The position numbers were made by a program, and so were the translations under genes. A stretch of DNA of 64,000 nt, from contig QZJO01000013.1 in NCBI GenBank assembly GCA_003599755.1, forward strand, positions 27,729 to 91,728, in the 5' to 3' direction. This document shows, one piece after another, positions 32,656-60,712 of the stretch; within the stretch, counting starts at the first letter, position 1, and each line of letters begins with the position of its first letter. The stretch comes from Candidatus Parcubacteria bacterium. GTDB taxonomy: Bacteria > Patescibacteriota > Minisyncoccia > Sungbacterales > SURF-37. The notes beneath the pieces are model-generated. The model saw only the letters and a list, made by a program, of their open reading frames with translations. It made no database searches and was not told the DNA's origin.

Positions 32656-32662
32656 GTATGGA

Positions 32663-32776
32663 TCCCGTTAGAGACCGCGGTCGCGGTATATAAATTATGC
32701 GGATGCTGAGAATAGTAATTACTCAGGGTAATCGACGGGCGGGAAACTGTGCGACCGCGCCCTGTCTCTAACGGGA
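32663..32776 (+). mobile_element. 114-bp start-codon element, family A, copy 1 (hit)
   Basis: A-TGGA[TCCCGTTAGAGAC...GTCTCTAACGGGA]TGGA; 13-bp TIR, 4-bp duplication. Confidence 0.85.
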
Positions 32777-33132
32777 TGGACTGCGTATTCTGCAAAATCG
32801 CGCGCAAAGAAGTGCCGACCGAGGTCGTGGCTGAGGATGCCCAGATTCTGGCCTTCCCCGATCATAAACCCAAGGCCCCGGTTCATATTCTCGTCATCCC
32901 GAAAGAGCACATTCAGTCAATCGCGCATCTGGAAGCGAATCATAACGATGTGATCGCGAAGCTCATCTATACCGCCAAGCACGTCGCCGCCGAAAAAGGA
33001 CTGAAAGGATACAAGCTCGCGTTCAACGTCGGGCGCGCGGGCGGGCAGCTCGTCGATCACCTCCATCTGCACCTCTTGGGCGGATGGGACAAGCCCGAAG
33101 ATTGGAAAAAAGGATTTTTAGGAGATTTGTAA
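32776..33132 (+). CDS. HIT family nucleotide-binding protein (HinT-like)
   Basis: MDCVFCKI, PKAPVHILVIPK, GQLVDHLHLHLLGG. Confidence 0.93.
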   Translation: MDCVFCKIARKEVPTEVVAEDAQILAFPDHKPKAPVHILVIPKEHIQSIAHLEANHNDVIAKLIYTAKHVAAEKGLKGYKLAFNVGRAGGQLVDHLHLHLLGGWDKPEDWKKGFLGDL

Positions 33133-33147
33133 TCACATATTCATCGC

Positions 33148-33375
33148 ATGGTCTACGTCAAACGAAAAGAACGCGAAACGACCGCCTCAATGCTTCGTCG
33201 CTTCACGCGGCGCGTGCAGCAATCGGGCGTGCTGTTGCGCGCGCGCAAGGGTCGCTTCTTCGTGCCCAAGCCCAGCCGCCGCGCCGTGCGCGAGCGGGCG
33301 TTGCGCCGCATCCAAGTTCAAAAGGAGCGCACGAAGCTCGTGAAGCTCGGCAAATTGCATGAACTCGACCGCTAG
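33148..33375 (+). CDS. rpsU: 30S ribosomal protein S21
   Basis: E...SMLRRFTRRVQQSGVL, FVPKPS; upstream of yqeY as is typical. Confidence 0.85.
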   Translation: MVYVKRKERETTASMLRRFTRRVQQSGVLLRARKGRFFVPKPSRRAVRERALRRIQVQKERTKLVKLGKLHELDR

Positions 33376-33384
33376 TCCGTTCTC

Positions 33385-33846
33385 ATGCTCGCCGATACCG
33401 TTGCCGCCCAATTGAAAGAAGCAATGGTGGCGCGGGATGAACTCCGCGTCTCGACCCTGCGCATGCTGCAGGCCGCTTTGCAAAATCGCGAAATCACCGA
33501 GCGGGGCAAGGGGAGTGCAAGCCCGCTTACCGATGCCCAGGTCACGGCAGTGGTCCGCGCGGAACTCAAAAAGCGGCGCGACGCCATCGAAGCGTATCGC
33601 GCCGCGGGCCGGGTTGATGCCGCGGCGCGGGAAGAAGCCGAAGCGGGGGTGCTCGCTGTGCTCTTGCCGCCCGAACTTTCCGATGCCGAGCTCGATGCGC
33701 TTGTGGCCGAAGGCGTTCTTGCGACCGGCGCGGCAAGCGAGCGCGATTTTGGTAAACTGATGGGGTGGCTCCGCGGACGGGTGGACGGCAAGGCATCGGG
33801 CGAGCGAGTCGCCGCGGCAGCCAAACGGAAGTTAGGAGTTGCATGA
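33385..33846 (+). CDS. GatB/YqeY domain protein
   Basis: LKEAMVARDELRVSTLRML, KKRRDAIEAY, LPPELS, DFGKLMG. Confidence 0.92.
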   Translation: MLADTVAAQLKEAMVARDELRVSTLRMLQAALQNREITERGKGSASPLTDAQVTAVVRAELKKRRDAIEAYRAAGRVDAAAREEAEAGVLAVLLPPELSDAELDALVAEGVLATGAASERDFGKLMGWLRGRVDGKASGERVAAAAKRKLGVA

Positions 33847-34274
33847 TCGTAACGGTCGCAAATCGGACTGCGGCGCGCGTGTCCCGCGCTGAAGTCGCGC
33901 GCATCATCGAACGAACGTTCCGGATACTGCGCCGCCAGGGCTTTGGCATCGAGCAGGGATATGCCGTATCCGTGGCCTTCGTGGGCCAGCGCGAGGCCAA
34001 AGCCATTGCCAGCCGATTTTTAAAAAAACGCCACGCCGCCAACGTCCTTTCCTTCGACTATGGCCCGGCGGGGGAGCTCGTTCTCAACCCGGACGCTATT
34101 CGGCGCTCGATTCCGGCATTGGGGGCCTCATTTTCCGAGGCTTTGCGCCGGCTCCTCATCCACGGGGCCGTGCATTTGGCGGGCGTGCATCATGAGCGTT
34201 CCCGGCGGGAGGCCCGCGCGGCGGAACGATTAGAAGCGGATATCGAACGAGCGCTCCGCGTCCGGCGGCGCTGA
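33843..34274 (+). CDS. ybeY: rRNA maturation endoribonuclease YbeY
   Basis: NVLSF, GELVL, HGAVHLAGVHH metal motif. Confidence 0.88.
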   Translation: MIVTVANRTAARVSRAEVARIIERTFRILRRQGFGIEQGYAVSVAFVGQREAKAIASRFLKKRHAANVLSFDYGPAGELVLNPDAIRRSIPALGASFSEALRRLLIHGAVHLAGVHHERSRREARAAERLEADIERALRVRRR

Positions 34275-34284
34275 ATAAAAACCT

Positions 34285-35508
34285 GTGCGCGATGTTTCCA
34301 TAGGCATTGATATCGGTACGACCGCAGTGACGACTGCGGTCGTCGAACGCATGGCCGACGGAACCATTGCGGTGCGCGGCATCGGCCGCGCGCCGAGCGC
34401 CGGCTTGCGCCGCGGCATGATCGTGGATGTGGATGCGACCGCGCAATCAATCCGCCGTTCGGTGCTTGAGGCGTCCAAGGCCTCGGGCGCGACGATTCGC
34501 GCCGCGGTAGTCGGCATCGGCGGGACGCATCTGGGAAGCTTTACGACGCGCGGCGCGGTTGCCGTGACGCGTACGGACGGGGAAATCACCGAGCAAGATG
34601 CGACGCGCGCGCTCGCGGCCGCCGAAGGATTCATTTCGAAAAATCCCAATCGCGAGATCGTGCATGTTATCCCGCGTGAATTTCGCGTGGACGGACAGGG
34701 CGGCGTCATGGATCCGGTGGGTTTGGTCGGCATGAAGCTTGAAGTGGAAGCGCTCGTTATCGATGGTGCGCGGCCCGCGCTGCAAAATATCGTGAAGGCC
34801 TGCGAGCTTGCCGGCATTGAAGTGCGCGATTGGGTCGCCAACGTCGTGGCCGCGTCGTCGGTGCTTTTGAATGATCAGCAGCGGGAACTCGGCGCGATGC
34901 TCTTGGACTTGGGCGCGGGCACCACGGATTTTGCGATCTTTGAGGAAGGGCGACTCCTGGACGCGGGCGTCATTCCGATCGGCGGCACACACATCACTGC
35001 CGACATCGCGATCGGCCTTCGAACCAACATCGCGGCCGCGGAACAGATCAAGCTGCGTTACGCGTCGGCATTGCCCGATCCGCGCGCGACGCGGCGCGAT
35101 ACCATCGCACTCGGAGATTTCGTGCGCGGCGACAGTTCGGTCTTCGCGGTCCGCGACCTCGTCGATATTATCGGCGCGCGGCTTACCGATGTGTTCGAAC
35201 TTGCGACCAAAGCGATGAAACGCGTCGGCCGCGCGGGCCTCTTGCCCGGCGGCATCGTGCTCGTCGGAGGCGCGGCCTCCATTCCGGCGATTCAGGAACT
35301 CGCGCGCCGGGAGCTCCGTTTACCGGTCGAGACCGCGACCGAACTTTCCATCGAGGGCATGCCGCTTGATGCGCCGACCGAATTTGCGGTATCCATCGGC
35401 CTCGCACTGTGGGAAGGTCGGGGACTGCGGTTCGCCCCCCGGCACGCCAATCGTTTCGGCAGCATTTGGGAAGGAATCAAGCGCGTATTGCGCACATTCG
35501 TGCCCTAG
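34285..35508 (+). CDS. ftsA: Cell division protein FtsA
   Basis: GIDIGTT, GLRRGMIVD, LLDLGAGTT, GGTHITADI, AEQIK; upstream of ftsZ. Confidence 0.95.
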   Translation: MRDVSIGIDIGTTAVTTAVVERMADGTIAVRGIGRAPSAGLRRGMIVDVDATAQSIRRSVLEASKASGATIRAAVVGIGGTHLGSFTTRGAVAVTRTDGEITEQDATRALAAAEGFISKNPNREIVHVIPREFRVDGQGGVMDPVGLVGMKLEVEALVIDGARPALQNIVKACELAGIEVRDWVANVVAASSVLLNDQQRELGAMLLDLGAGTTDFAIFEEGRLLDAGVIPIGGTHITADIAIGLRTNIAAAEQIKLRYASALPDPRATRRDTIALGDFVRGDSSVFAVRDLVDIIGARLTDVFELATKAMKRVGRAGLLPGGIVLVGGAASIPAIQELARRELRLPVETATELSIEGMPLDAPTEFAVSIGLALWEGRGLRFAPRHANRFGSIWEGIKRVLRTFVP

Positions 35509-35592
35509 TTCCGGCCATCGGCTGGACTTGTCGCCGGCGGTAGTACTCGAACACACCCGGAGCAATTATCAAGTTTACGAATCGCCGGCTTT

Positions 35593-35621
35593 TTGCTACG
35601 GCTCGTATAGGAATTTATAAT
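35593..35621 (+). promoter_or_regulatory. Sigma70-type promoter upstream of ftsZ
   Basis: TTGCTA-17 nt-TATAAT. Confidence 0.7.
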
Positions 35622-35689
35622 CGTCCGGTTCAATGGGCGGCGGCATGATGCTGCCGCCGTATCCCGCTTTTCTCGAAAACGCATTCGCT

Positions 35690-36802
35690 GTGCCACACCT
35701 CAAACCAGAACTCGAAACGTTTGCGCGCATCAAAGTCGTTGGCGTCGGAGGATCCGGCAACCACGCCGTAACGCGCATGGTGGAGAAGAAAATTCACGGC
35801 GTTGATTTTATTGTTATTAATTCCGACGCCCAGGATCTTCATCAGGCCAAGGCGCAGCACAAGATCCATATCGGTAAAAATCTGACCAAAGGCCTCGGCG
35901 CGGGGATGAATCCGGAAATCGGGCGCCAGGCGGCCGAAGAGAATCGTGACGACATCCACGAAGCGATCAAGGGCGCGGACATGGTGTTCGTGACCTGCGG
36001 CTTGGGCGGCGGCACCGGCACCGGGGCCGCACCGATCGTCGCCGAAGTTGCGAAAGAATCGGGCGCGCTGACGGTCGGCGTCGTGACGAAACCGTTTTCG
36101 TTCGAAGGATTGCAGCGCACGCGCATCGCCGAAGAGGGTTGGGCGAAATTGCGCGACCGCGTGGACGCGCTCATCACGATCTCGAACGATCGGCTCTTGA
36201 ATCTCGTCGACAAGGCGACTTCGCTCCTCTCGGCATTCCAGGTCTGCGATGACGTGCTACGCCAAGCGGTGCAGGGCATCTCCGATCTCATCACGCTGCC
36301 GGGCTTGATCAACGTGGACTTCGCAGACGTGCGCGCGGTGATGCAGGATACCGGTTCCGCATTGATGGGCGTGGGCTTGGCGACCGGCGATGACCGCGCG
36401 GTGCAGGCCGCGCGCGCCGCGGTTAGCTCGCCGCTTTTGGATATTTCTATTGATGGCGCGCACGGTGTGCTCTTCAACGTCTCGGGCGGTTCGGACATGA
36501 CCATGTGGGAGATCAACGAGGCGGCCAAAGTCATTACCGAATCCATTGATAAGGAAGCAAAACTCATTTTCGGCGCGGTCCACGACGAACGGCTGAAGAA
36601 AGGCGAGCTCAAAATCACCGTGATTGCGACCGGATTCGGGACGCCGGTGCCCAAACCCGTGCCCGAATTGAAAAAAGCGGTCACGCCGCCGCCCGCCCTT
36701 GAGCGCGCCAAACCCGCGGTGCCGACGGCAACACCCGTGACCCGCGATGCCGAAGAAGAGGAGTGGGGAGCGGTGCCCGCGTTTCTTCGCCGCCGCAAGT
36801 AG
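35690..36802 (+). CDS. ftsZ: Cell division protein FtsZ
   Basis: [25 protein letters not shown]-terminal VPAFLRR; GTG start at 35690 inferred (ATG 35633 possible). Confidence 0.97.
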
Positions 36803-36902
36803 CGCTCGGCTCCGCGGCCGCCAGCCGAGCCCGATGGGCCAGTTCGGCAGGCCGTCAACGGAGCGGGCGAAATTTTCCGAAAAATTCTCTTCGCGCCTTC
36901 CT

Positions 36903-36932
36903 TCAGGCGACGGCTCATGAGCCGTCGCCTGA
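36903..36932. repeat. Perfect 30-bp palindrome
   Basis: TCAGGCGACGGCTCA|TGAGCCGTCGCCTGA. Confidence 0.9.
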
Positions 36933-36986
36933 TTCGTTTGTCTTGCCAAAAATATTTTTCATTGCGTAGGCCGGCTTTCGCAGCGG

Positions 36987-37024
36987 TTATCCACACCGGT
37001 TCTCTGGCGGACGAGGTCTATAAT
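36987..37024 (+). promoter_or_regulatory. DnaA box plus -10 element upstream of nrdJ
   Basis: TTATCCACA at 36987-36995, TATAAT at 37019-37024. Confidence 0.6.
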
Positions 37025-37143
37025 AAAAATCTCTCAATCGATTCGTCGTCTTTCTTATTCATAGAGGTCTGTTCCGTTCGGTCGCGTAGTTCGCAAGGCC
37101 CCCCGTCGAGGCCTTTCGGCTCCCCGCAGGAACGCATACGTCC

Positions 37144-39909
37144 ATGCCCGACGCAACGCTCACGCCCGGGGTCGCAACCCAAAAGAAAGTCGCGCTTCCT
37201 ATTGCGCGGTTGTTCTCGGCGCCCGGCCGCCATCCGTTCGATGAAGTGGAATGGGAAAAGCGTCCGGTCGTCATTCGGGGCATGAATGGCGTGACGCACG
37301 AAGAAGAAGGCGAGTTTCCGGTATTTTGGTCGGTCAACGCTTCCAATATAACCGGCTCGAAGTATTTTCGCGGGAAAATCGGCACGCCGACGCGCGAAAA
37401 TTCAGTCAAGCAGATGATCAGCCGCGTCGTGCGCGTCGCGCGCGAGTGGGGATTGCAGTTCGGACATTTCGATACCGAAACCGAAGCCAATACCTTTGCC
37501 GACGAGCTGACGCATATCCTTTTGTTCCAGAAGGCCTCGTTCAATTCGCCGGTGTGGTTCAACGTCGGCGTTGAAACCAAGCCCCAGTGTTCGGCCTGCT
37601 TCATCCTTTCGGTGGAAGATGACATGCGCTCGATCATGGATTGGATCTATACCGAGGCTATGATTTTCAAAGGAGGATCGGGCGCGGGCGTGAATCTATC
37701 GCCGTTGCGTTCATCGCACGAGAAATTGACGCAAGGCGGCCGCGCTTCCGGACCCGTATCATTTATGCGCGGCGCTGATTCGATCGCCGGCATGATCGCG
37801 TCAGGCGGCTCGACGCGCCGCGCGGCAAAGATGGTCGTGCTCAATGCCGATCACCCGGATATCATGTCCTACGTGCGTTCAAAAGCCGACGAGGAAAAGA
37901 AAGTGCGCGCGCTCATGGCGGCGGGCTACGACATGCAGGATTTGAACAACGACGGCTGGAAGTCCATCCAATACCAGAACGCGAACAACTCCGTGCGCGT
38001 AACCGATGAATTCATGCGCGCGGCCGAAACTGATAGTACGTGGCAGACCCGTTATATCATGACAGGCGAAGTTGCCGGAGAGATGAAGGCGCGAGAGCTC
38101 CTGCGCGCGATCGCCGAGGCGTCATGGGAATGCGGCGATCCGGGATTGCAGTACGACACGACGATCAACCGCTGGAACACCGCAGCCAACACCGGGCGTA
38201 TCAACGCGACGAATCCGTGCGCAGAATACATTCACCTCGACAACTCGGCCTGCAACCTCGCGTCTATTAATCTGATAAAGTTTTTGGGCGATGACGATTC
38301 GTTCCGCGTGGAGGATTTCATGCACACGGTACGGATCATGATTCTCGCCCAGGAGATCTTGGTCGGCGGCTCGTCCTATCCCACGCCGAAAATCGAGAAA
38401 AATGCCCATGATTTTCGCGAATTGGGCTTAGGTTACGCGAATCTTGGCGCATTTATGATGGCGTTGGGCGTGCCCTATGACTCGGCCGAAGGTCAGGCGA
38501 TCGCCGGCGGCATCACCGCGCTCATGACCGGCGAGGCCTACCGTTATTCGGCCGTGATCGCCGCGCGCATGGGACCGTTCGCCGGATTCGCGGTCAATCG
38601 CGAGCCGATGACCCGAGTGCTCCGCATGCATCGCGACGCGCTCTCGACCATCGCGCGCGATAAACTGTTCGATCCGCGCATCTACGACCAAGCCGTGCAA
38701 TCCTGGAACGAAGCGGTGCGCCTCGGCGAAACGTACGGCGTGCGCAATTCGCAGGTCACGGTTATCGCGCCGACCGGCACGATCTCGTTCATGATGGATT
38801 GCGATACCACGGGCGTGGAGCCGGATTTTTCGCTCGTCAAAACCAAGAACTTGGTGGGCGGTGGGGTAATGAAAATCGTCAATCGCACCGTACCCCGCGC
38901 GCTCCGGCGCCTCGGCTACGACGAAGTCCAGATCAACGACATCATCGCGCACATCGAGGCGAAAGGAACGGTCGAAGGCGCGCCGCATATTCAGAACGAG
39001 CACTTGGCGGTATTCGATTGCGCGGTCAAACCGGCCAACGGCACGCGCTCGATCGCGTGGCAGGGCCATGTGCGAGTCGTCGCCGCGGTACAGCCGTTTA
39101 TTTCGGGCGGCATCTCGAAGACCTTCAACATGCCGTATGAGACGACGGTCGAAGAGATTATGGAGGCCTATATCATGGCCTGGAAACTCGGCATCAAATG
39201 TTTCGCGGTGTATCGCGACGGATCGAAAGCCGCCCAGCCGCTGGTCACGTCGAGCGGCAAAGGCGGCGCGCGCGAGGACGCCAAGCAAGTTGAGATGCCG
39301 TTCGCACCCATGCGCCGCCGCATGCCCGCGACCCGCGCGTCCGAGACGCATAAGTTCGTCGTCGCCGGCCACGAGGGCTACATGACTTATAGCGTCCACC
39401 CTGACGACGGCCTTGCCGAAATTTTCATCCGCATGGCCAAACAGGGCTCGACCCTCGCGGGACTCTTGGACTCGTTCGCGATCATGGTATCGGTTTCGCT
39501 CCAGTACGGTGTGCCGTTGAAAGACCTCGTGCGCCGCTTCGCCTACACGCGTTTCGAGCCGGCCGGCTTTACCGAAAACGCCGACATCCAAGTAGCGACC
39601 TCGATCGTGGACTATATCTTCCGGTATTTGGGCCAGCGCTTCCTTTCGCCCGATGAGCTGGCGGAGCTTGGTATCAACGCGTCGAGCGCCGTGCTCGCGC
39701 CTCTGACGAATCGCGCGGCAGCCGCTCCCATGGAGGGCGAGCTGGAACCGACCCAGCCGGTCAGAATCGAGGCCACGAAAGCCATCAAAATCGAGGAAAC
39801 AGTGACCATATACGCCGACTCGGTCTGCCGGAATTGCGGGGGAATGCTGGTTCAGACCGGGGCCTGCAAGACCTGCCGCTCCTGCGGCGTCTCGACCGGC
39901 GGGTGCTAG
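37144..39909 (+). CDS. nrdJ: Class II (adenosylcobalamin-dependent) ribonucleotide reductase
   Basis: FNSPVWFN, QCSACFI, TRRAAKM, TNPCAE, ACNLAS, IAPTGTIS, GISKT, YRDGSK, C-terminal TSCPD and CxxC...CxxCG. Confidence 0.95.
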   Translation: MPDATLTPGVATQKKVALPIARLFSAPGRHPFDEVEWEKRPVVIRGMNGVTHEEEGEFPVFWSVNASNITGSKYFRGKIGTPTRENSVKQMISRVVRVAREWGLQFGHFDTETEANTFADELTHILLFQKASFNSPVWFNVGVETKPQCSACFILSVEDDMRSIMDWIYTEAMIFKGGSGAGVNLSPLRSSHEKLTQGGRASGPVSFMRGADSIAGMIASGGSTRRAAKMVVLNADHPDIMSYVRSKADEEKKVRALMAAGYDMQDLNNDGWKSIQYQNANNSVRVTDEFMRAAETDSTWQTRYIMTGEVAGEMKARELLRAIAEASWECGDPGLQYDTTINRWNTAANTGRINATNPCAEYIHLDNSACNLASINLIKFLGDDDSFRVEDFMHTVRIMILAQEILVGGSSYPTPKIEKNAHDFRELGLGYANLGAFMMALGVPYDSAEGQAIAGGITALMTGEAYRYSAVIAARMGPFAGFAVNREPMTRVLRMHRDALSTIARDKLFDPRIYDQAVQSWNEAVRLGETYGVRNSQVTVIAPTGTISFMMDCDTTGVEPDFSLVKTKNLVGGGVMKIVNRTVPRALRRLGYDEVQINDIIAHIEAKGTVEGAPHIQNEHLAVFDCAVKPANGTRSIAWQGHVRVVAAVQPFISGGISKTFNMPYETTVEEIMEAYIMAWKLGIKCFAVYRDGSKAAQPLVTSSGKGGAREDAKQVEMPFAPMRRRMPATRASETHKFVVAGHEGYMTYSVHPDDGLAEIFIRMAKQGSTLAGLLDSFAIMVSVSLQYGVPLKDLVRRFAYTRFEPAGFTENADIQVATSIVDYIFRYLGQRFLSPDELAELGINASSAVLAPLTNRAAAAPMEGELEPTQPVRIEATKAIKIEETVTIYADSVCRNCGGMLVQTGACKTCRSCGVSTGGC

Positions 39910-39917
39910 ATCGCTCG

Positions 39918-40103
39918 CATCCCGGAAAAATCTCAGCCGTTCTGCGAACGCCGTTGCCTCGGATGCTTCGCAATGCGAATCAGGAAAATTTCAACTCGAC
40001 CGCGCCGAAGACGCGGGACTCGGACAAGAAAATTTTCCTTGCATTGCTCGCGTCCTCGGCACGGCGTTTGTCGCATCTCGGCAATGTAATTTTTACGGAA
40101 TAC
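39918..40103. repeat. About 185-bp imperfect rod-like inverted repeat (structured RNA or MITE)
   Basis: Nested complementary blocks TGCGA/TCGCA, ACGCCG/CGGCGT, TGCC/GGCA, GCAATGC/GCATTGC, AGGAAAATTT/AAATTTTCCT. Confidence 0.75.
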
Positions 40104-40168
40104 TCACTTGGCATTTCCCTGCGGTAGGGCCCTTGCGGGGCCCTCGGTCCTGTTATGATAACCGCATT

Positions 40169-40717
40169 ATGCTGCTTATATTCACTGGCAATGGAAAAGG
40201 AAAAACCACGGCCGCGCTCGGGCAGGCGCTGCGTTCGGTTGGCGAAGGCAAACGAGTATTGATGGTGCAGTTTATTAAAGGGCCGTGGAAGTCGGGCGAA
40301 GATGACATTGAGATCGTTATCAAAGGAAATCCTTCGACAAGCTCGGGATCACCAACCTTTCGGTTGGTGAAGATGGGCAAAGGCTTTGTCGGCATTCTCA
40401 ACGACAAACTGCCGCGTGAAGAACATGAACGAGCCGCAGCCGAGGCGTTGATTTATGCGCGGCAAGAGGCGGAGTCCGGAAAATGGAACATGATTATTCT
40501 TGACGAGGTAAACAATGCGGTTGCCCTTGATCTTATAAGGAAGGAAGACGTGCTCGCATTCGTAGATAGCGCATTGCCGAAGCTGGAGCACATTATTTTG
40601 ACTGGCCGCGATGCGCCGCAAACATTCATCGAGCGAGCGGACTTGGTGACGGAGATGCGCGATGTGAAGCATCCCTATGAGCAGGGGATCAAAGCCAAGA
40701 GAGGATTGGAATATTGA
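40169..40717 (+). CDS. btuR: Cob(I)alamin adenosyltransferase (BtuR/CobO/CobA type)
   Basis: TGNGKGKTTAALG, VQFIKG, ILDEV, LTGRDAP, ADLVTEM..VKHPY..GI.A..G.EY. Confidence 0.93.
   Translation: MLLIFTGNGKGKTTAALGQALRSVGEGKRVLMVQFIKGPWKSGEDDIEIVIKGNPSTSSGSPTFRLVKMGKGFVGILNDKLPREEHERAAAEALIYARQEAESGKWNMIILDEVNNAVALDLIRKEDVLAFVDSALPKLEHIILTGRDAPQTFIERADLVTEMRDVKHPYEQGIKAKRGLEY
40329..40349 (+). repeat. REP-like 21-bp unit in frame within btuR
   Basis: ATCCTTCGACAAGCTCGGGAT encodes (N)PSTSSG(S); related to CCCTTCGAC...GCTCAGGG at 52868-52895. Confidence 0.6.
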
Positions 40718-50965: not shown

Positions 50966-50994
50966 TTGACCGGTTTGCAAAGGCCTGCTACCAT
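50966..50994 (+). promoter_or_regulatory. Internal promoter for tuf
   Basis: TTGACC-17 nt-TACCAT with extended TG. Confidence 0.65.
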
Positions 50995-51087
50995 GCATCT
51001 GTTTGGTAATGGCTTGAAACCGGCTTTCGCCGGAGCTTTTATCCGGTCGTTATTCGTATCATTCATTAGCGATATTAATACTGCACT

Positions 51088-52281: not shown

Positions 52282-52360
52282 TCCCAGGATGAAGGCGCGG
52301 GCGAACCCTTGTATCGCTCGCGTCTTCGTTCCTTGAACCCGCCAGTTCTTCGAAACGAGT

Positions 52361-52693
52361 ATGGCAACCGCTGTCCGCGAAGAGGAGGTAAAGCCGCGCA
52401 TCCGGATCCGCATCCGGGCCTATGATCATAAGATCATCGATGCCTCGGTGCGTCAGATCGTGGATACTGCGCGCCGCCACGGGGCCGATGTCATCGGCCC
52501 GGTGCCATTGCCGACTGAAATCCGGAAATACACGGTGAACCGCTCGACCTTCGTCCATAAAGATGCGCGCGAGCAGTACGAAATGCGGGTGCACAAGCGC
52601 CTCGTGGACATCGTGAACCCCACGCCCAAAATCATCGACGCGCTGACGAATCTGACGCTGCCGGCCGGCGTGGATATTGAAATCAAGATGTGA
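52361..52693 (+). CDS. rpsJ: 30S ribosomal protein S10
   Basis: [27 protein letters not shown]. Confidence 0.98.
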
Positions 52694-53118
52694 GGTTTTG
52701 CCTGCCGAGGCGGAGCCGAGAGGCCCTAAAATCTTCATCCGCCGAAGCTTTGCCGGCAGGCAGGTTCAGCGGAGGCGAATTGCCAAAATGCATTCCTGCC
52801 CTTTTCTCCCAGTGCGAAGCAGTGGAGGAAAAGGGGAGTGATGCAACCGGCTCACTCCGCCCGTTGTCCCTTCGACTCGCTCCGTTCGCTCAGGGTAAGC
52901 ACCTGCAGCGCGCAAGCAGAAAGAAGGTGGGCGCCTTATTTGCAAGGCATAATCGTGATTGATTTCGTGCACCGGTAGGCACTGCGGCCAAGCGCGTATC
53001 CCAAGGCGGGCGTTGCCCGTTTTTTCTTGTCTTCATGCGCCGGCCAGCTCGCCATACCGCTCTTCCCCGGCCTCTGCATTTCTGCTACGAATGGCCGGTG
53101 GCCTGATCGATTCCATCC
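52694..53118. repeat. 425-bp rpsJ-rplC spacer packed with REP-like palindromes
   Basis: CCGCCGAAGC...CAGCGGAGGCG, TGCCGGCAGGCAGG, CCTTTTCTCC...GGAGGAAAAGG, CCCTTCGAC...GCTCAGGG. Confidence 0.6.
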
Positions 53119-53736
53119 ATGTCCAAATTCATTCTCGGCAAAAAGCTCGGTATGACCCAGGTGTTCGACGCATCGGGCGCGGTGATTCCCGCAACCCTGA
53201 TCGCGGTCGCGCCCCTTACGGTCATTCGAGTGAAAACCAAGGAGCGCGATGGCTATACCGCGGTCCAGCTTGGCTATGGCCGCCGCCGCCCGACGCGTGT
53301 CGCCAAGGCCCAGCGCGAGGAATGGAAGGATCTCGGCCCGTTTGCCGTCGTGCGCGAGGCGCGGGGCTTGAGTCAAGGCGAGCGGGCGAGCACCATCGAT
53401 ATTTCGCAGTTTGCCGAAGGCGATGAGGTTATTGTCAGCGGCGTTTCCAAAGCGAAGGGATTTGCCGGCGTGATGAAACGCCACGGATTCCACGGCGCTC
53501 CGGCGACCCACGGCACGAAACACGCGCACCGCGAACCGGGTTCCATCGGCGGCGGGGGCGGACGGGCCGGCGGCCGCGTGGTCAAAGGCATGCGCATGGC
53601 CGGCCGCATGGGCGCGGACCACGTCACGCGCCGGGGCGTACCGATCGTGAAAATCGACGCCGAGCATAACATTATCGCGGTGAAAGGCGCGGTACCCGGT
53701 CCGCGGGGCGCGCTTATCGAAATTCGCGCGGACTGA
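53119..53736 (+). CDS. rplC: 50S ribosomal protein L3
   Basis: GKKLGMTQVF, DGYTAVQLG, KGFAGVMKRH. Confidence 0.98.
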   Translation: MSKFILGKKLGMTQVFDASGAVIPATLIAVAPLTVIRVKTKERDGYTAVQLGYGRRRPTRVAKAQREEWKDLGPFAVVREARGLSQGERASTIDISQFAEGDEVIVSGVSKAKGFAGVMKRHGFHGAPATHGTKHAHREPGSIGGGGGRAGGRVVKGMRMAGRMGADHVTRRGVPIVKIDAEHNIIAVKGAVPGPRGALIEIRAD

Positions 53737-53741
53737 CATTT

Positions 53742-54401
53742 ATGAACATCGGCGTATACAACCAAGAAGGAAACCGCGTGGGCGAGATGGAATTGCCCGC
53801 CGCGTTTGCCATGCGTTGGAACGCGAATCTCGTGCATCAGGTGGTGACGAGCGAGCTCGCGAACCGCCGACCGACCGTTGCGCACACACGGGGCCGGAGC
53901 GAGGTTCGCGGCGGCGGAAAAAAACCGTGGCGCCAGAAAGGCACGGGCCGCGCGCGCCACGGGTCCATCCGATCGCCGATTTGGAAGGGCGGCGGCGTGA
54001 CCCATGGACCAACCAAAGAGCACGATTTCAAGAAAAAGATCAACCGCCGCATGGCGGCCAAGGCCCTGGCCATGGTACTGGGCGCGAAAGCCCGTGACCA
54101 CGAGCTCGTGGTGGTGGATACGCTGCAACTTGGCGCGCCCAAAACCAAGCAGGCCGCGGCGGCATTTGCCAATATCGCCAAGGGTGCCGCGATCCGCGAT
54201 TGGGGCGGCAAAAAGCCGCGCGCGCTCCTTCTCTTGCCCAAGAAGGATGAGATCGTGATTCGCGCGAGCCGGAACATTCCGTTTTTGGAACTCATGGAGG
54301 CGCGCAACGTCACCGCGCTCGATGCCCTTAACCGCAAGTACGTCGTCGCGCCCCAGGAGGCGATCGCCGTGCTCGCCGAACGCCTGAAGCGCGCCGCCTA
54401 A
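53742..54401 (+). CDS. rplD: 50S ribosomal protein L4
   Basis: GGGKKPWRQKGTGRARHGS. Confidence 0.98.
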   Translation: MNIGVYNQEGNRVGEMELPAAFAMRWNANLVHQVVTSELANRRPTVAHTRGRSEVRGGGKKPWRQKGTGRARHGSIRSPIWKGGGVTHGPTKEHDFKKKINRRMAAKALAMVLGAKARDHELVVVDTLQLGAPKTKQAAAAFANIAKGAAIRDWGGKKPRALLLLPKKDEIVIRASRNIPFLELMEARNVTALDALNRKYVVAPQEAIAVLAERLKRAA

Positions 54402-54411
54402 CCCGCGAATC

Positions 54412-54816
54412 ATGTTCAATCCGTTCAAAAAAGAAGCGAAGCTCAAGACCGAGCCGCCGACTAAAGCCCCGCGTCGCGCGGCAACGGCCGCGCCGCAAGC
54501 CGCGGCCAAGCCAGCGGCCGCGCCGCGTAGCGCGGAGGCGCGCCGGTTTATCGGCATCGTCATTGCGCCGCATGTCACGGAAAAAGCGAGCATGGCCGGC
54601 GCCCATAATTGGTATACGTTTCGCGTCCGGCCGCAGGCCACGAAAATCGAAATCCGTCGCGCTGTGGAAGAGCGCTACGGGGTTTCAGTCGAGCGCGTAC
54701 GCGTACTCAACACCCTGCCGCGCCGCATTCGACTCGGCCGTACGGAGGGCACGGTATCTGGATTCCGCAAAGCCATGGTAAAAATTGCGCCCGGCCAGAA
54801 AATCGAATTTACCTAA
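54412..54816 (+). CDS. rplW: 50S ribosomal protein L23 (Ala/Pro-rich N-terminal extension)
   Basis: PHVTEKA, YTFRV...ATKIEI, RKAMVK. Confidence 0.95.
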   Translation: MFNPFKKEAKLKTEPPTKAPRRAATAAPQAAAKPAAAPRSAEARRFIGIVIAPHVTEKASMAGAHNWYTFRVRPQATKIEIRRAVEERYGVSVERVRVLNTLPRRIRLGRTEGTVSGFRKAMVKIAPGQKIEFT

Positions 54817-54821
54817 ATTTC

Positions 54822-55643
54822 ATGAAGCGCTATCGCCCAACCAGCCCCGCGCGTCGTCAGGCCGAAATGGTCGACATGACGGACGTCACAAAGAAAGGAC
54901 CGGAAAAGTCCCTCACGGTCGGCTTTCGGCGTGGCGTAGGCCGCAATGCGCAGGGCCGCATCACGACGCGGCATAAAGGCGGCGGAGCCAAGCGCCGCTG
55001 GCGGATGATCGATTTCAATTTCGACCGCAAAGACATGCCCGCCGTGGTGGAGGCGATCGAATACGATCCGAACCGCACCGCACGCATCGCGCTCGTGCGC
55101 TACCAAGACGGCGAACGGCGCTATATTCTCGCGCCCGCCGGGCTTAAGCCGGGTGCGCGGTTCATCGTTTCTAAAACCGCGCCGATCGCGGTCGGCAACC
55201 GCTTGCCGCTTGCCGCAATTCCGGTCGGCACGTACGTTTTCAATATTGAATTGACGCCCGAGGGCGGCGGCAAACTCGTGCGTTCGGCCGGCGTAGGGGC
55301 GCAGCTTTTGGCCGTGGAGGGCGCGTATGCGCAGCTCAAGCTGCCGTCCGGCGAAATCCGTATGGTGCGGGCTGATTGCTGGGCGACGATCGGGTCGCTG
55401 TCGAACGCTGAATGGTCGCTCATGAGCTTCGGCAAGGCCGGCCGCATGCGCCACCGCGGCATCCGTCCGACGGTGCGCGGTTCGGCCATGAACCCGCGCG
55501 ACCATCCGTACGGCGGCGGTGAAGGCCGGGCCATGCGCGGAACGCGCCGTCCGAAAACCGCTTGGGGTAAAATCACCGGCGGGGTCAAAACGCGGCGCCG
55601 CAAATGGTCGGATCGATTTATCGTGCAGCGCCGCAAACGCTAA
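54822..55643 (+). CDS. rplB: 50S ribosomal protein L2
   Basis: IEYDPNR, RGSAMNPRDHPYGGGEG. Confidence 0.98.
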   Translation: MKRYRPTSPARRQAEMVDMTDVTKKGPEKSLTVGFRRGVGRNAQGRITTRHKGGGAKRRWRMIDFNFDRKDMPAVVEAIEYDPNRTARIALVRYQDGERRYILAPAGLKPGARFIVSKTAPIAVGNRLPLAAIPVGTYVFNIELTPEGGGKLVRSAGVGAQLLAVEGAYAQLKLPSGEIRMVRADCWATIGSLSNAEWSLMSFGKAGRMRHRGIRPTVRGSAMNPRDHPYGGGEGRAMRGTRRPKTAWGKITGGVKTRRRKWSDRFIVQRRKR

Positions 55644-55652
55644 CGCTATTCC

Positions 55653-55979
55653 ATGACCCGATCGCTCAAAAAAGGACCGTACGTGCACCCGAGCATCTTG
55701 AAGCACCTGGCCCGCACCAAAGCGGGGGCGGGCGTGATCAAGACCTGGGCGCGCAGCTCCCAGATTACGCCCGAAATGATCGGGCACCGCTTTGCCGTGC
55801 ACAACGGCCGGACCTTCGTCGAGTTTTCTATCTCGGAGGAAATGGTCGGCCACCGGTTGGGCGAATTCGCGCCGACTCGCAAGTTCGTCCGCCACGGCGG
55901 CCGCATGCAAAAAGAGATCGAGACCAAAGCCGCCGAAGCCCAAAAGGCCGCAACAACTGCGCCGGCCGCGGGCAAATGA
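55653..55979 (+). CDS. rpsS: 30S ribosomal protein S19
   Basis: [22 protein letters not shown]. Confidence 0.98.
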
Positions 55980-55991
55980 TAAGAGCCCAGT

Positions 55992-56501
55992 ATGCACATC
56001 ACCGCTGAACTCAATTATCTGCGTCTAGCGCCCCGGAAGGTGCGCTTGATTGCCGATGCCATCCGCGGCAAGCGGGTGCCGGACGCCGAGCGCACGCTCC
56101 AGTTCCTCGGCCGCCGCGCCGCGCTGCCGGTGGCGAAGCTCTTGCGTTCGGCCGTCGCCAACGCGCGCCACAATTTCCAGATTAGCGATCCGGCCACGCT
56201 GACCATCACCGAGATCCGCGTGGATCAGGGCCCGATGCTGAAGCGCATTCAGCCGCGGGCCATGGGCCGCGCGTTTCGCATCCGGAAAAAGACGAGTCAC
56301 ATCCGGATTGTGCTGGAAGCGTCCAAGGCCCCCGCGCGCCGTGCCAAAGCGAAAAGCGACATTGCCGTCGTGACCGAGGCCGATTCACGGGCCGATGCGG
56401 CCGCCGGTTCGCGCGGCCGCGATGAGCGCCCTGGCACTCCGTCCCGGCCGACGTCGCGCCAACCGTTTACCCGCCGCATATTCCGCCGCAAAGCCATATG
56501 A
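55992..56501 (+). CDS. rplV: 50S ribosomal protein L22 (C-terminal extension)
   Basis: APRKVRL, SAVANA, PRAMGRA, TSHI. Confidence 0.97.
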   Translation: MHITAELNYLRLAPRKVRLIADAIRGKRVPDAERTLQFLGRRAALPVAKLLRSAVANARHNFQISDPATLTITEIRVDQGPMLKRIQPRAMGRAFRIRKKTSHIRIVLEASKAPARRAKAKSDIAVVTEADSRADAAAGSRGRDERPGTPSRPTSRQPFTRRIFRRKAI

Positions 56502-57196
56502 CCCATCGCGTGCATCCTTTTGTATTCCGCCTTGGTGAGACCACGACCTGGAAGTCGCGCTGGTTCAACTTGAAAAAGTTCCCCGCGCTTTTGCGCGAGG
56601 ATACGCTGTTGCGCGAATGGCTCTGGAAGCGCTTGGCGGGCATGCGCGTCTCGTCCATTGAGATCGAGCGTTCGCCGAACACCGTCACCATCATCATCAA
56701 GACCGCGCGGCCCGGTATTCTTATCGGCCGCGGCGGCGAGGGGATCGAGCGGCTGCGCCGTGATATCGAGCGCGAACTCCGGCGCATCGCGCGGCGGTTC
56801 AAGGTGCGCCCCGCGGCCGAGAAGCGCGAATTGAAACTGACGATTGAAGAGGTGCGCTCGCCCGAAATCGACGCGCGCATCGTGGGCGAGGAAATTAAGG
56901 AAGACATCGAAAAGCGCGTCCGCTTCCGCCGCATTTTGAAACAGGCGGTCGAGCGCGTGATGAGCCACCGCGAGGTCCAGGGCGTCAAAATCATGCTGTC
57001 CGGCCGATTGGATGGCGCCGAGATGTCGCGCACCGAATGGGCTAAGCGCGGCCGCATCCCACTCCAGACGCTTCGCGCGAACGTCGACTACGCCCTCGTG
57101 GAGGCGTTGACGACGTATGGCACAATCGGTATCAAGGTATGGATCTATAAGGGCGATGTCTTCGAAAAAGCCGAACAAAAGGAGGAAAAATCCTAG
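56498..57196 (+). CDS. rpsC: 30S ribosomal protein S3
   Basis: [31 protein letters not shown]. Confidence 0.98.
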
Positions 57197-57204
57197 CGCT
57201 TCCT

Positions 57205-57621
57205 ATGTTGCAGCCCAAAAAGGTCAAACACCGAAAATGGTTCAAAGGACGCTCCCGCGGCATCGAACGCCGGGGCGTGGATTTGGCGTTCGGTACCTAC
57301 GGCCTGAAGGCGGAGGAAGCGCGTTGGATTACCGCGCGGCAAATCGAAGCCGCGCGCCGCGCGATCACGCACCATATCCAGCGGGGCGGAAAATTGTGGA
57401 TCCGGGTATTTCCGGACAAGCCCGTAACCAAGAAGCCGCCCGAAGTTACCCTCGGCGGGGGCAAAGGAGCGGTCGATCATTACGTCGTCGCGGTGCGGCC
57501 GGGACGAGTTCTGTTCGAGATGGACGGGGTATCGGCCGAGGTTGCGAAAGAGGCGTTGCGCCGCGCGTCGGCGAAGCTGCCCATTCGAACGTCGATTATT
57601 GCTGAACACGCCGGCATATGA
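57205..57621 (+). CDS. rplP: 50S ribosomal protein L16
   Basis: [26 protein letters not shown]. Confidence 0.98.
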
Positions 57622-57809
57622 AACCCGTTGAATTGCGCAAAAAATCGGCAGGCGAATTGGCGGACCTTTTGCGGGAACGCCAGGTTCGCCGCGAGGAGCT
57701 CGTACTGCTTCTGGGTCAGCATAAAGCCAAGAATGTCAAGGAACTGGCGACCGTGCGCCGTGACATCGCGCGCATCAAAACCATCCTTGCTCAACAGCCA
57801 CGATCATGA
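57618..57809 (+). CDS. rpmC: 50S ribosomal protein L29
   Basis: [17 protein letters not shown]; operon position. Confidence 0.94.
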
Positions 57810-57810
57810 G

Positions 57811-57924
57811 CCCCATCAGAGACCGCGGTCGCGGTATACAAATCATGCAGATAATGGCAGCATCGATTACCAGTAATATTCAACGGGCAGGGAGCGGTAC
57901 GACCGCGACCTGTCTCTAACGGGA
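57811..57924 (+). mobile_element. 114-bp start-codon element, family A, copy 2 (rpsQ)
   Basis: A-TGAG[CCCCATCAGAGAC...GTCTCTAACGGGA]TGAG; 85/114 ungapped identity to copy 1 by hand count. Confidence 0.85.
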
Positions 57925-58217
57925 TGAGAACGCTCCAGGGCACAATCGTATCCAATCGCATGACCAAGACCGTGGTCGTTCGGGTCGATCGTTTGAAGCA
58001 GCACGCGAAGTACCGCACGCATTACCGGTCGAGTCAGAAATTCAAAGCCGACGTCCCCGACGCCGCGGCGTTCGCGATCGGCGATATCGTCCGTATCGTC
58101 GAGACCCGGCCCCTGTCCAAGGACAAGCGCTGGCGCGTCGTTGATGTGGTGCGCAAAGCCACGGCGCCTCTTACCGATGAATCGTCGGCCGAGGCGGCAA
58201 CCCCCGAACACGTATGA
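57924..58217 (+). CDS. rpsQ: 30S ribosomal protein S17
   Basis: [31 protein letters not shown]. Confidence 0.97.
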
Positions 58218-58579
58218 TCCAGACCCGCAGCATGCTCAAAGTGGCCGATAATTCCGGAGCCAAATTGCTCCAGGTAATTCACGTACTCGGCGGTACGCGC
58301 CGCCGGTATGCCGAGCTCGGCGACATTATCGTCGCGGCGGTCAAAGCAGCCGAGCCGCGCAAGCCGGTAAAGAAAAAAGACGTTGTGCGCGCGGTGATCG
58401 TGCGCCAGAAAAAGACGTTTCGCCGGAGCGACGGCACGTACGTGCGGTTCGACGACAACGCCGCGGTGGTGCTCGACGGCACGGAACCCAAAGGCGGCCG
58501 CATCTTCGGCCCGGTCGCGCGAGAATTGCGCGAGCGCGGTTTTACCAAAATCGTTTCCTTGGCGCCCGAAGTCATCTAG
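58214..58579 (+). CDS. rplN: 50S ribosomal protein L14
   Basis: [24 protein letters not shown]. Confidence 0.98.
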
Positions 58580-58583
58580 TCCT

Positions 58584-58904
58584 ATGCCTACGCGACTAAA
58601 AATTAAAACCGGCGATACCGTCCAACTTCTGTCCGGCAAGGAACGGGGCAAGCGCGGCAAGGTAATCGGGGCGTTTCCCCGAACCGGTTTGGTCGTGGTC
58701 GAGGGCTTGAATTTGAAAAAGCGGCATCGCCGAAGCCGCCGACAGGACAAGAAAGGCGAGATCGTGCTGATTCCCGGCCCGGTGCAGAGCTCCGCGGTGG
58801 CGGTCGTCTGCCCGAAATGTTCGAAGCCCGCGCGCATCGGATATCAGTTAGCGGAAGGCGGCCGGAAACTCCGCGTCTGCAACCAGTGCCGCGCAGCGTT
58901 CTAA
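58584..58904 (+). CDS. rplX: 50S ribosomal protein L24
   Basis: KIKTGDTV..LSGKERGKRG, VEGLN. Confidence 0.96.
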   Translation: MPTRLKIKTGDTVQLLSGKERGKRGKVIGAFPRTGLVVVEGLNLKKRHRRSRRQDKKGEIVLIPGPVQSSAVAVVCPKCSKPARIGYQLAEGGRKLRVCNQCRAAF

Positions 58905-58912
58905 CCCATTCT

Positions 58913-59449
58913 ATGAATCTGACCCGTGAACGATACGCCAAAGACGTCGTGCCCGCCCTGCGGGAGGCATTTGGCTATAAAAATCAGATGGCCGTACCGC
59001 GGGTTCTGAAAGTCGTGGTCAATGCCGGCGTGGGTCGCATCCGCGAAGAAAAGCAGCACGAGCAGGTGAAAAAAGCTCTCGGGCTTATCACCGGCCAGAA
59101 GCCGGCAGCACGCCCGGCGAAAAAAGCTATTGCGTCCTTCAAAACGCGCCAGGGGCTCGTGGTGGGCTATCAAGTAACGCTGCGGGGCAGACGCATGTGG
59201 GACTTTTTGTCGCGCCTCGTGGACGTCGCCATTCCGCGCCAGCGCGACTTCCGCGGCTTGGATCCCAAGGGCGTGGACGAACACGGCAATTTGACAATCG
59301 GATTTCGCGAGCATATCGTGTTCCCCGAACTGATCGGTGAGGATATTCCATTCCTCTTCGGTCTGGAAGTAACCGTCGTAACGTCGGCCGAGACGCGTGC
59401 TGAGGGTTTGGCGTTGCTCACGCGGCTCGGTTTTCCGTTTCATTCCTAA
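58913..59449 (+). CDS. rplE: 50S ribosomal protein L5
   Basis: [28 protein letters not shown]. Confidence 0.97.
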
Positions 59450-59454
59450 ACTCA

Positions 59455-59640
59455 ATGGCAAAGCAATCCGTCATCGCCCGTTCGTTGAAGCGCCCGAAGT
59501 TTTCTTCGCGGATCGTTCGCCGTTGCTTCCGTTGCGGCCGGCGGCGCGGGTATATGAGCGATTTCGATCTTTGCCGGATTTGCTTCCGGGAACTCGCGAA
59601 CCGCGGCGAGATTCCCGGCATTCGAAAATCGAGCTGGTAA
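59455..59640 (+). CDS. rpsN: 30S ribosomal protein S14 (zinc-binding type Z)
   Basis: RCFRCGR...LCRICFRE...PGIRKSSW. Confidence 0.97.
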
Positions 59641-59652
59641 ACCCCATACACT

Positions 59653-60039
59653 ATGGATGCCCTGTCGGACTTCTTCATACGTATCAAGAACGGCTATCGC
59701 GCGAAGCGTGCGACGGTCATTGTTCCGCATTCCAAATTGAAGGCGGAGGTTGCGCGCGTGCTGCAATCGCGGGGCTACATCGGCGAGATCGAAAAGAAGG
59801 GCCGGAAAGTTCGTAAGTTTTTGGAACTCGAATTGCGCTATCCCAACGGCGAACCCGCTCTGGAATCGGTCAAGTTGATCTCCAAGCCGTCGCGTAAGCT
59901 CTACATGAAAAAGGGTGAAATCCGTCCGATCCGCCAAGGATTCGGCCTGCTCGTCATCTCGACGTCGCGCGGCATCATGAGCGGCGAGGAAGCTCGGAAG
60001 GCGGGGCTCGGCGGTATGGCGATTGCGGAAATTTGGTAA
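59653..60039 (+). CDS. rpsH: 30S ribosomal protein S8
   Basis: RIKN, ISKPSRKLY, ISTSRGIM. Confidence 0.97.
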   Translation: MDALSDFFIRIKNGYRAKRATVIVPHSKLKAEVARVLQSRGYIGEIEKKGRKVRKFLELELRYPNGEPALESVKLISKPSRKLYMKKGEIRPIRQGFGLLVISTSRGIMSGEEARKAGLGGMAIAEIW

Positions 60040-60053
60040 TACATCTTCATGAG

Positions 60054-60167
60054 TCCCGTTAGAAACCGCGATCGCGCATCAACCATACGACATATGCCCA
60101 TGAAAGAAACGCATAATTTCAGTAACTATCAGAAAGCGATTCAGATCGCGATCTGTTTCTAACGGGA
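60054..60167 (+). mobile_element. 114-bp start-codon element, family A, copy 3 (rplF)
   Basis: A-TGAG[TCCCGTTAGAAAC...GTTTCTAACGGGA]TGAG; same length, different interior. Confidence 0.85.
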
Positions 60168-60712
60168 TGAGTCGCATCGGCAAACAACCCATCGAACTTC
60201 CCAGCGGCGTGAGCGCCCGCTTTACCGATGGCGCCCTCACGGTCACCGGTCCGAAAGGGACGCTTGCCCGGACGATTCGCCCGGAGGTGACGATCACGAT
60301 CGAGGGCACCGTGCTTTCCGTGGCACCGGCCAAAGAGACGCGCGACACGCCCGCATATTGGGGTCTCACGCGGGCGCTCATCGCGAACATGGTGGAAGGC
60401 GTAGCCAAAGGATTTACGAGAAAATTAGAGATTGAAGGCGTCGGCTATCGCGCGACACTGGACGGCCAGACGCTCGTGCTCGCCATCGGATTTTCCCACC
60501 CCGTACGTATCCCGCCGCCCGAGGGCATAACCTTCGCGGTGGAAAAAAACGCAGTGACGGTTTCAGGCGCGGACAAGGAATTGGTCGGCGACACGGCCGC
60601 GACGATCCGCCGCATTCGGCCGCCGGAACCTTATAAAGGAAAAGGTATCCGCTATGCCGGCGAAATCATCCGGCGCAAGGCCGGCAAGAAGGCCGCCGCC
60701 GCGGGCGCATAA
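60167..60712 (+). CDS. rplF: 50S ribosomal protein L6
   Basis: MSRIGKQPI, GVGYRA, PEPYKGKGIRY. Confidence 0.98.
   Translation: MSRIGKQPIELPSGVSARFTDGALTVTGPKGTLARTIRPEVTITIEGTVLSVAPAKETRDTPAYWGLTRALIANMVEGVAKGFTRKLEIEGVGYRATLDGQTLVLAIGFSHPVRIPPPEGITFAVEKNAVTVSGADKELVGDTAATIRRIRPPEPYKGKGIRYAGEIIRRKAGKKAAAAGA

Follow-up and report, generated by a model that had tools for sequence, protein, structure and literature searches.

Inverted-repeat elements docked on start codons in a Patescibacteria genome, and a small GIY-YIG nuclease that may move them

How do short repeats come to sit exactly on the start codons of genes, including genes for ribosomal proteins? The question is raised by a 64,000-nucleotide stretch of a Candidatus Parcubacteria genome (assembly GCA_003599755.1, contig QZJO01000013.1, positions 27,729 to 91,728), which we call the window. 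In it, three 114-bp elements that carry no gene stand at the starts of hit, rpsQ, and rplF. An earlier note, made from the sequence alone, took them for miniature inverted-repeat transposable elements (MITEs), and we agree: they have terminal inverted repeats without a transposase gene, a 4-bp duplication that is derived from the target, and empty orthologous junctions, and such elements are enriched at starts over a null expectation. Our best reading of the sequences is that the window elements are gene-less copies of inverted-repeat elements of 274-293 bp whose only gene encodes a small GIY-YIG nuclease. It is probable, we think, that this nuclease drives the movement of both forms. The literature searched, whose coverage excludes subscription journals, yielded no description of this element family.

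The window elements and their copies in the genome

The element at hit (32663..32776, on the forward strand like all three elements, their duplications, their leader frames, and their host genes) has 13-bp terminal inverted repeats, an inner stem, and a 4-nt bulge on the side of the gene, and it lies between two copies of TGGA (32659..32662 and 32777-32780). The elements at rpsQ (57811..57924) and rplF (60054..60167) lie between copies of TGAG (57807..57810 and 57925-57928 for rpsQ; 60050..60053 and 60168-60171 for rplF). At rpsQ, the left end has decayed (it begins with C and has 3 mismatches to the right end), and the TGA of the left duplication is the stop codon of rpmC. In each case, the element's final A is the first base of the host gene's ATG. 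The hosts, as identified with Pfam, are hit (HIT family, 32776..33132), rpsQ (S17, 57924..58217), and rplF (L6, 60167..60712). These coordinates, ends, duplications, and shared bases are exactly as the earlier note gave them, and so is the ATGA overlap of rpmC and rpsQ that reappears once 118 nt are removed. Removing 118 nt at the other sites leaves a spacer of 9 nt between rpsH and rplF and of 2 nt between hit and its upstream neighbor hisS (31258-32655). The note's supposition that such junctions are normally tight fared less well for rpsH-rplF: in this taxonomic order the spacer is often loose, with 32-394 nt in 20 of the 27 relatives that could be assessed, and those 20 spacers hold unrelated repeats.

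Folding z-scores against shuffled sequences are -5.9 (hit), -2.3 (rpsQ), and -5.0 (rplF). At the Rfam gathering score, the elements match no family, and two tRNAs are the sole matches in the window. A 443-nt contig from one soil run covers the rpsQ element with 0 differences, and this run may be the source sample.

The genome (929 kb, labelled G000; C1, C2, and so on are its contigs, and L numbers are individual loci) contains 27 pairs of element ends, or 21 loci once 6 cross-pairings are removed. A genome-wide scan had been proposed in the earlier note, and it extends the pattern: 18 of the 21 loci are docked on start codons, and 14 have the exact 4-bp duplication, including 3 of 3 in the window. 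Fifteen loci are on ATGRR starts (where R is a purine), namely those of hit, rpsQ, rplF, rplS, rplI, nusA, cysS, typA, ychF, murJ (two in tandem), a murG-like gene, a glycosyltransferase, a TIGR00375-like gene, and one unnamed gene. Three more are on starts with TATG flanks (rplU, a lysS-like class II tRNA synthetase, and a PD-(D/E)XK gene). The three non-start loci are one that includes the gyrB start, one that gives murJ its stop, and one that is intergenic. The gyrB copy (G000:C1:254771-254870) is C..G-ended with a CCAG duplication, and it holds the start codon and first 17 codons of gyrB, so the N-terminus of GyrB is now made of element sequence. The left repeat of a decayed copy (G000:C4:8914-9089) provides the TAG stop of murJ, the gene whose start has the two tandem copies. 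Because the hit and rpsQ elements are just 76% identical, we read the copies in this genome as old.

Have these elements moved? As the earlier note anticipated, element-free junctions exist: no element is present at the orthologous rpmC-rpsQ junction in any of 29 relatives (6 of which have the ATGA overlap), at rpsH-rplF in any of 29, or at hisS-hit in any of 19 (9 of them tight). These relatives are all from other genera rather than close strains, which weakens the argument. Short copies in other genomes appear younger. In G032, 100-bp copies that are 100% and 98% identical occur at three sites, and in G017, 103-bp copies on two contigs are 100% identical; because near-identical short copies occupy unrelated sites, they seem to show recent movement. 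Also, two full elements from different families are 92% identical, and the near-identical metagenome loci L261 and L262 differ by a 121-nt short copy with a 3-bp duplication. We rejected L281 and L282 as a filled and empty pair because their 40-nt difference lies in a host-gene repeat that is unrelated to the element. In contigs of three soil runs, no joint that skips 118 nt was found among the 15 listed of 46, which cannot show that excision is absent.

Relatives carry other repeat or hairpin families at the same ribosomal junctions, one of them with ATCCCGT..ACGGGAT arms. Such spacers occur at rpmC-rpsQ in L143 (G002) and L152 (G027), and at rpsH-rplF in L172, L173, L176, L177, L179, L184, L187, L189, L195, and L196. 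These two junctions look like hot spots for small selfish repeats.

A full-length partner with a GIY-YIG nuclease

The earlier note expected an autonomous partner with the same ends. There is a candidate, but it is just 277 bp long, and it encodes a GIY-YIG nuclease rather than an HUH or DDE transposase or a tyrosine recombinase. Two such elements lie outside the window (G000:C2:12075-12351 on the forward strand and G000:C3:6284-6560 on the reverse strand). In both, the sole gene encodes a 94-aa protein with a single domain that matches PF01541 (GIY-YIG), and the two proteins are 76% identical to each other. The nuclease frame begins at the left copy of the ATG, runs through both repeats, and ends in a TGA that overlaps the rebuilt ATG of the host. 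Across the family, full elements span 274-293 bp and the frame opens with either the left ATG copy or an internal ATG.

The predicted fold of the nuclease is nearest to UPF0213 and Slx1. A profile search gave 1zg2 (UPF0213) as the best match (E 1.4e-10), and Foldseek with the structure model (predicted local distance difference test, pLDDT, of 83) gave 1zg2 (E 2e-4) and Slx1 7cq2 (E 5e-4). In 62 nuclease sequences, Tyr11, Tyr13, Tyr24, Gly26, Arg34, His38, and Glu70 are invariant or nearly so, and we take these residues to be catalytic by analogy with the GIY-YIG family. No NCBIfam model matches the nuclease. Between the stem arms, the median ratio of nonsynonymous to synonymous substitution rates (dN/dS) is 0.18 (38 pairs with unsaturated synonymous sites), so purifying selection is shown, as far as sequence comparison goes, to act on the protein.

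The association of this nuclease with the ends is not peculiar to one genome. Nuclease matches occur in 46 of the 62 genomes of the order, and when 30 of these loci were read, the 10 best matches were all within element ends while the 12 weakest never were. A metagenome search found 139 relatives, and the best 80 were analysed: 67 are distinct elements with paired ends, 9 are duplicates, and 4 lack paired ends. Of the 67, 57 are start-docked, 46 have an exact duplication, and 62 have the nuclease stop starting at the first base past the element. On a tree of core residues (few columns, 74, with rough support and an unsettled bootstrap), the 100/94 branch has 79 flanked and 4 unflanked or unassigned proteins on one side, and 17 unflanked proteins and one degenerate protein on the other. 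The TTAG and TACG end types cluster on this tree and neither is one clade (9 and 7 changes). Short copies that adjoin TACG-ended nuclease elements bear the same variant end (L261 and L249).

A search of the genome for a larger element in which these ends enclose a transposase found none. The long end pairs in G017 and G032 are separate short elements around host genes, and no other gene was found between the ends of the long candidate pairs in these two genomes; the G038 list covered 100 of 116 entries. The genome encodes one tyrosine recombinase. Carriage of the family by phage is not supported, as viral contigs contain no relative of the nuclease and match the end pattern only twice. The genome also has three other small GIY-YIG genes (G000:C10:123481-123741, G000:C1:96347-96574, and G000:C10:118024-118248). 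Two of them come with distinct inverted repeats of their own (11 and 15 bp), and the third adjoins tRNA-Asn, with a partial tRNA repeat on its far side; these are possibly sister element families.

Target choice, folding, and host translation

Of 41 related genomes, 26 have the end pattern (a reversed control gave 0 matches); its strict form, with ATG flanks, is present in 53 of 301 genomes across the class. The GTDB matches that were listed carry the labels Patescibacteria, Omnitrophota, Deltaproteobacteria, and Planctomycetota. Among the 130 listed unanchored GTDB elements, 86 have an exact 4-bp duplication, and the duplications are precise and target-derived and fall into at least 15 tetramer classes. 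Of the listed T..A-ended copies, 63 of 73 are at the ATG of a long frame, while the 51 listed C..G-ended copies are at a GTG start (9), a stop (8), a tRNA (1), or elsewhere (33). G-ended and some A-ended copies use other tetramers. A 5-bp duplication was considered and rejected: G-ended copies turn the ATG into GTG, and 8 of the 9 start-docked C..G copies keep the left ATG.

Would avoidance of coding DNA be enough to put A-ended copies on starts? Of the A-ended copies in our genome, 15 of 17 are at starts, while only 265 of the 1434 ATGRR sites that are non-coding or starts (~18%) are starts (binomial p 9e-10, with a null built on a crude gene caller, which counts against it). Because so few of these sites are starts, avoidance of coding DNA alone does not explain the docking. 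The bulged end is toward the gene in 40 copies, away from it in 4, and unrecognisable in 29; from the sequences, insertion is shown to be polar, at A|TGRR. No upstream motif beyond an AT-rich context was seen. In three relatives (G017, G032, and G038), we surveyed ~20-27 stretches per genome, a subset of the copies. In G017, 27 of the 40 T..A copies stand on starts or belong to tandem arrays at starts. So the earlier note's claim that the element targets, or survives only at, start codons stands for the A-ended subfamily and fails for G-ended copies in G038, of which 0 of 25 are at starts: start docking is a property of the A-ended subfamily, with its ATGRR targets, and not of the whole family.

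We also noticed some unusual copies. The typA start carries an element both in our genome and in a Lloydbacteria record (L025 and L008), which is either an old insertion or a reused site. C..G-ended copies lie inside long open frames (L321, L347, L354, L362, L365, L367, L370, and L379), and some have frame-keeping lengths and may have entered coding genes in frame. Whole tRNA genes (Thr, Leu, Pro, Val, and Ser) also lie within ends of this kind, which lengthen the acceptor stem, usually without a duplication (L323:720-810, L324:650-756, L325:669-773, L326:750-854, L364, L377, and L384); L324 lies inside a further element, which surrounds a decayed tRNA copy. Elements also insert into each other and into nuclease genes (L316, L322, L210, L315, L320, and L353). 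In G032, an interrupted full-length copy stands at the start of a RecA-like gene (a name given by inspection), and an rpmC-like gene has a nested pair at its start.

Full elements have a terminal stem and a 13-bp inner stem between the LRKR and RLKRF codons. Over both stems, in 63 full sequences, 96.8% of cells are paired and 14 of 26 pairs show two-sided change; the structure was derived from the same 63 sequences, which are related. None of 500 shuffles scored as high, and slid controls reached at most 49%. Short elements follow the same plan, with a terminal stem, a 4-nt bulge on the right side, and an inner stem (13 sequences; two-sided change in 8 of 20 pairs). In the full elements, the right end and inner stem are embedded in nuclease codons. 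Because the stems co-vary within coding sequence, this points to an element that acts as a folded single strand.

What does an insertion do to the host gene? In predicted mRNAs for 67 elements, positions -12 to +3 of the host start are 8% unpaired with the element versus 44% without it: the hairpin would bury the host start. The earlier note suggested that the element stays harmless by supplying the missing base. The A does rebuild the ATG, but because the stem buries the start region in the predicted mRNA, supplying it is likely not enough by itself, and the host gene probably also depends on a leader frame that starts at the left ATG. In 29 of the 76 start-docked copies, no stop interrupts this frame within the interior, whereas the other two frames are open in 10 and 6 (Fisher p 2e-6; the copies are not independent, and shared ancestry may contribute to the bias). 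At rpsQ (57806..57919, from a left ATG that overlaps the rpmC stop) and at rplF (60049..60162), the leader has 37 codons, and its TAA stop, in the right repeat, lies 4 nt short of the host ATG. Our impression is that the leader frame likely couples translation to the host gene.

Weighing the explanations

We suggest that the nuclease likely mobilises the full and gene-less forms via a folded single-stranded DNA intermediate. It would bind the folded ends and cut the target 4 nt apart, and the host's polymerase and ligase would complete the insertion. Start codons are likely favoured because they are exposed as single strands during transcription or initiation, and selection would then purge copies in coding DNA. 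An enrichment of pauses at starts is cited in PMC5234074. A ribosome that starts on the left ATG copy would open the hairpin and then begin anew on the host gene, so essential genes would tolerate the insertion. We are evenly divided on the most ambitious form of this proposal: that these are a new class of transposon of less than 300 bp, with a single GIY-YIG domain as transposase and the gene's own folded DNA as its branched substrate, and with one subfamily that actively targets translation starts. The same balanced judgement extends to its companion claim, that translational coupling would both express the element and keep essential host genes running.

Several observations weigh against our preferred reading. 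To our knowledge, GIY-YIG enzymes are hydrolytic nucleases and not strand-transfer enzymes, and the C2 nuclease has Trp in place of the nearly invariant Arg69, which the C3 nuclease retains. G002 has 8 elements but no nuclease match at E<=1e-8; genomes rich in short copies can be without a matching nuclease hit. An exact 4-bp duplication is missing from 44 of the 130 listed GTDB elements. Of 41 non-duplicated T..A or C..G copies, 11 have the preferred tetramer facing outward at both ends (L015, L026, L043, L061, L065, L074, L089, L093, L120, L126, and L135), a pattern that simple insertion leaves unexplained and that suggests either two independent joinings of the right end or recombination among copies. 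In G032, 4 of 12 T..A copies are at starts and the youngest are at A|TAAA sites that are not starts. The difference between L261 and L262 could be a deletion between repeated right ends. The hit leader (32658..32693) meets an early stop within the element, after 11 codons, and the open-frame bias persists where the left ATG has decayed (9 of 31 versus 4 and 4). Finally, G-T and A-C pairs in the stems are balanced and so favour neither the top nor the bottom strand, and neither DNA nor RNA, as the folded form.

Might something else move the elements? A DDE or HUH transposase that we have not seen could move a classical MITE family in trans, with the GIY-YIG gene as a passenger or as a retention factor (for which TnpB in IS200/IS605 is the comparison). 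Hydrolytic nucleases do not usually join DNA, and the absence from our genome of matches to DDE_Tnp_1 (PF01609), Y1 transposase (PF01797), and RVT_1 covers only the three enzyme families that were searched for. Also, the combination of terminal inverted repeats and a 4-bp duplication usually marks DDE elements (PMC3184786). Still, we find this explanation quite unlikely, given that no other gene was found between the ends in our genome or in the long pairs of G017 and G032, that the right end and inner stem are built into nuclease codons, and that short copies share the variant end of the nuclease element beside them. Or the nuclease might merely cut, and host repair might do the inserting (by homing-like gene conversion or by template switching from a folded donor), in which case this is a repeat system and not a transposon. 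A fold nearest to UPF0213 and the branched-DNA nuclease Slx1 would suit such a role, and the frequency of tandem and nested copies, the ends placed around tRNA genes, and the copies with target-like tetramers at both ends fit too. What makes this doubtful to us is that the targets share only 4-5 bases, which is too little for homing, that the duplications are precise and target-derived across so many tetramer classes, and that identical copies occupy unrelated sites.

It is possible, though we lean the other way, that the element recognizes only a short sequence (R|YNRR, specific to the subfamily) and that selection and longer retention, rather than recognition of starts, put the elements on start codons. 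The target tetramers vary by subfamily, the newest copies in G032 and the G-ended copies in G038 are off starts, and any strand-specific motif yields polarity. The excess of A-ended copies on starts over the neutral expectation is hard to square with this, as are the lack of a longer motif upstream and the three additional copies on starts that have a different duplication (TATG). We consider it very improbable that the elements are not mobile DNA but RNA hairpins or regulatory leaders that the host has domesticated for its ribosomal and housekeeping genes. Many copies are on essential genes, their interiors have diverged, and the leader frame is often open, but this idea is already largely refuted by the target duplications, the unrelated host genes, the lack of an Rfam match, and the lack of an element at orthologous junctions in any relative that was examined.

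How does our preferred reading, of an inverted-repeat element with its own GIY-YIG nuclease, compare with known systems? The Ssn nucleases are the closest experimental analogue, although the protein clade differs. These are single-domain GIY-YIG proteins (~94 aa) with their own hairpin repeats, which are also found gene-free (Chenal et al. 2025, PMC11893778); they cut only single-stranded hairpin DNA, and the authors hypothesise an IS-like (insertion sequence-like) NTS-ssnA-NTS unit. Our element resembles Ssn NTS/SRM (cd10448) in its 94-aa single-domain protein and its gene-free repeats, and the NTS stem has a similar TCCCG/CGGGA core (PMC11893778). Unlike Ssn, the ends of our element pair with each other over 70-290 bp and overlap coding sequence, and the element makes a 4-bp duplication and docks on start codons; the main text of PMC11893778, as available, does not use the terms "start codon," "duplication," or "Patescibacteria." The nuclease is 29-39% identical to Ssn over 66-68 aa and is separated from it by a long branch with support of 100, where Ssn was represented by four GIY-YIGs that adjoin NTS motifs rather than by CDD-assigned members of cd10448. 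Our genome has 0 dRS3-type motifs, so no 20-50-nt NTS/SRM hairpins flank the gene.

Bacterial MITEs with a parent IS (Correia, Nezha, and IMU) are likewise short and gene-less, with inverted repeats, a target duplication, a long stem-loop, and both filled and empty sites, but they are moved by IS transposases (PMC3184786). Here, the only candidate partner is the 277-bp element with a GIY-YIG nuclease, and the only gene found between the ends, in the genome, its relatives, and metagenomes, is a GIY-YIG gene rather than a known transposase; the available text of that review does not mention GIY. IS200/IS605 and REP/RAYT use an HUH enzyme and are not known to have terminal inverted repeats or target duplications, and our genome has no match to an HUH Y1 transposase, so we rejected membership in these groups. 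The likenesses are a tiny enzyme, folded single-stranded ends, polar insertion at a short motif, and clusters of gene-less repeats (PMC11893778, PMC3184786). Neisseria REP2 and Borrelia IR repeats are also stem-loops directly at gene starts, but they carry a promoter, a ribosome-binding site, and the ATG (PMC3184786), whereas here the ATG is target-duplicated, with one base from the element.

UPF0213/YhbQ and Slx1, which are the nuclease's best sequence and fold matches, are not described as part of a mobile element in the literature searched. Selfish GIY-YIG genes are found in genomes of the candidate phyla radiation (CPR), whose rRNA genes have GIY-YIG-coding insertions that are not intron-like and seem to be outside homing (PMC11270868); the available text of that paper has neither "inverted repeat" nor "start codon." In the available text of PMC12455944, GIY-YIG is named once, as a gene donated by Patescibacteria. 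Homing endonucleases have long targets and extra DNA-binding domains, and we rejected a GIY-YIG homing endonuclease because the targets here are 4-5 bases in many unrelated genes and the protein has a single domain. A Penelope-like retroelement was rejected because the element is too short and RVT_1 was not found in the genome, and an integron attC site, considered for the GTT/AAC boxes, because these boxes stand in reverse order and the duplication comes from the target.

If the nuclease is the mobiliser, then GIY-YIG would join the DDE, HUH, serine, and tyrosine enzymes as a chemistry of transposition, in an element of ~277 bp. It would also give a role to many small GIY-YIG proteins that are so far uncharacterised (at E<=1e-10 they form 3,575 clusters, most of which are probably other subfamilies), and the IS-like origin that was proposed for Ssn repeats would become directly testable. 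An enzyme of 94 aa that places DNA on start codons would also be attractive as a tool. For annotation, the left ATG copies yield false N-terminal extensions and short open reading frames across Patescibacteria. And selfish DNA can spread in gene-dense genomes of less than 1 Mb, even within their ribosomal operons.

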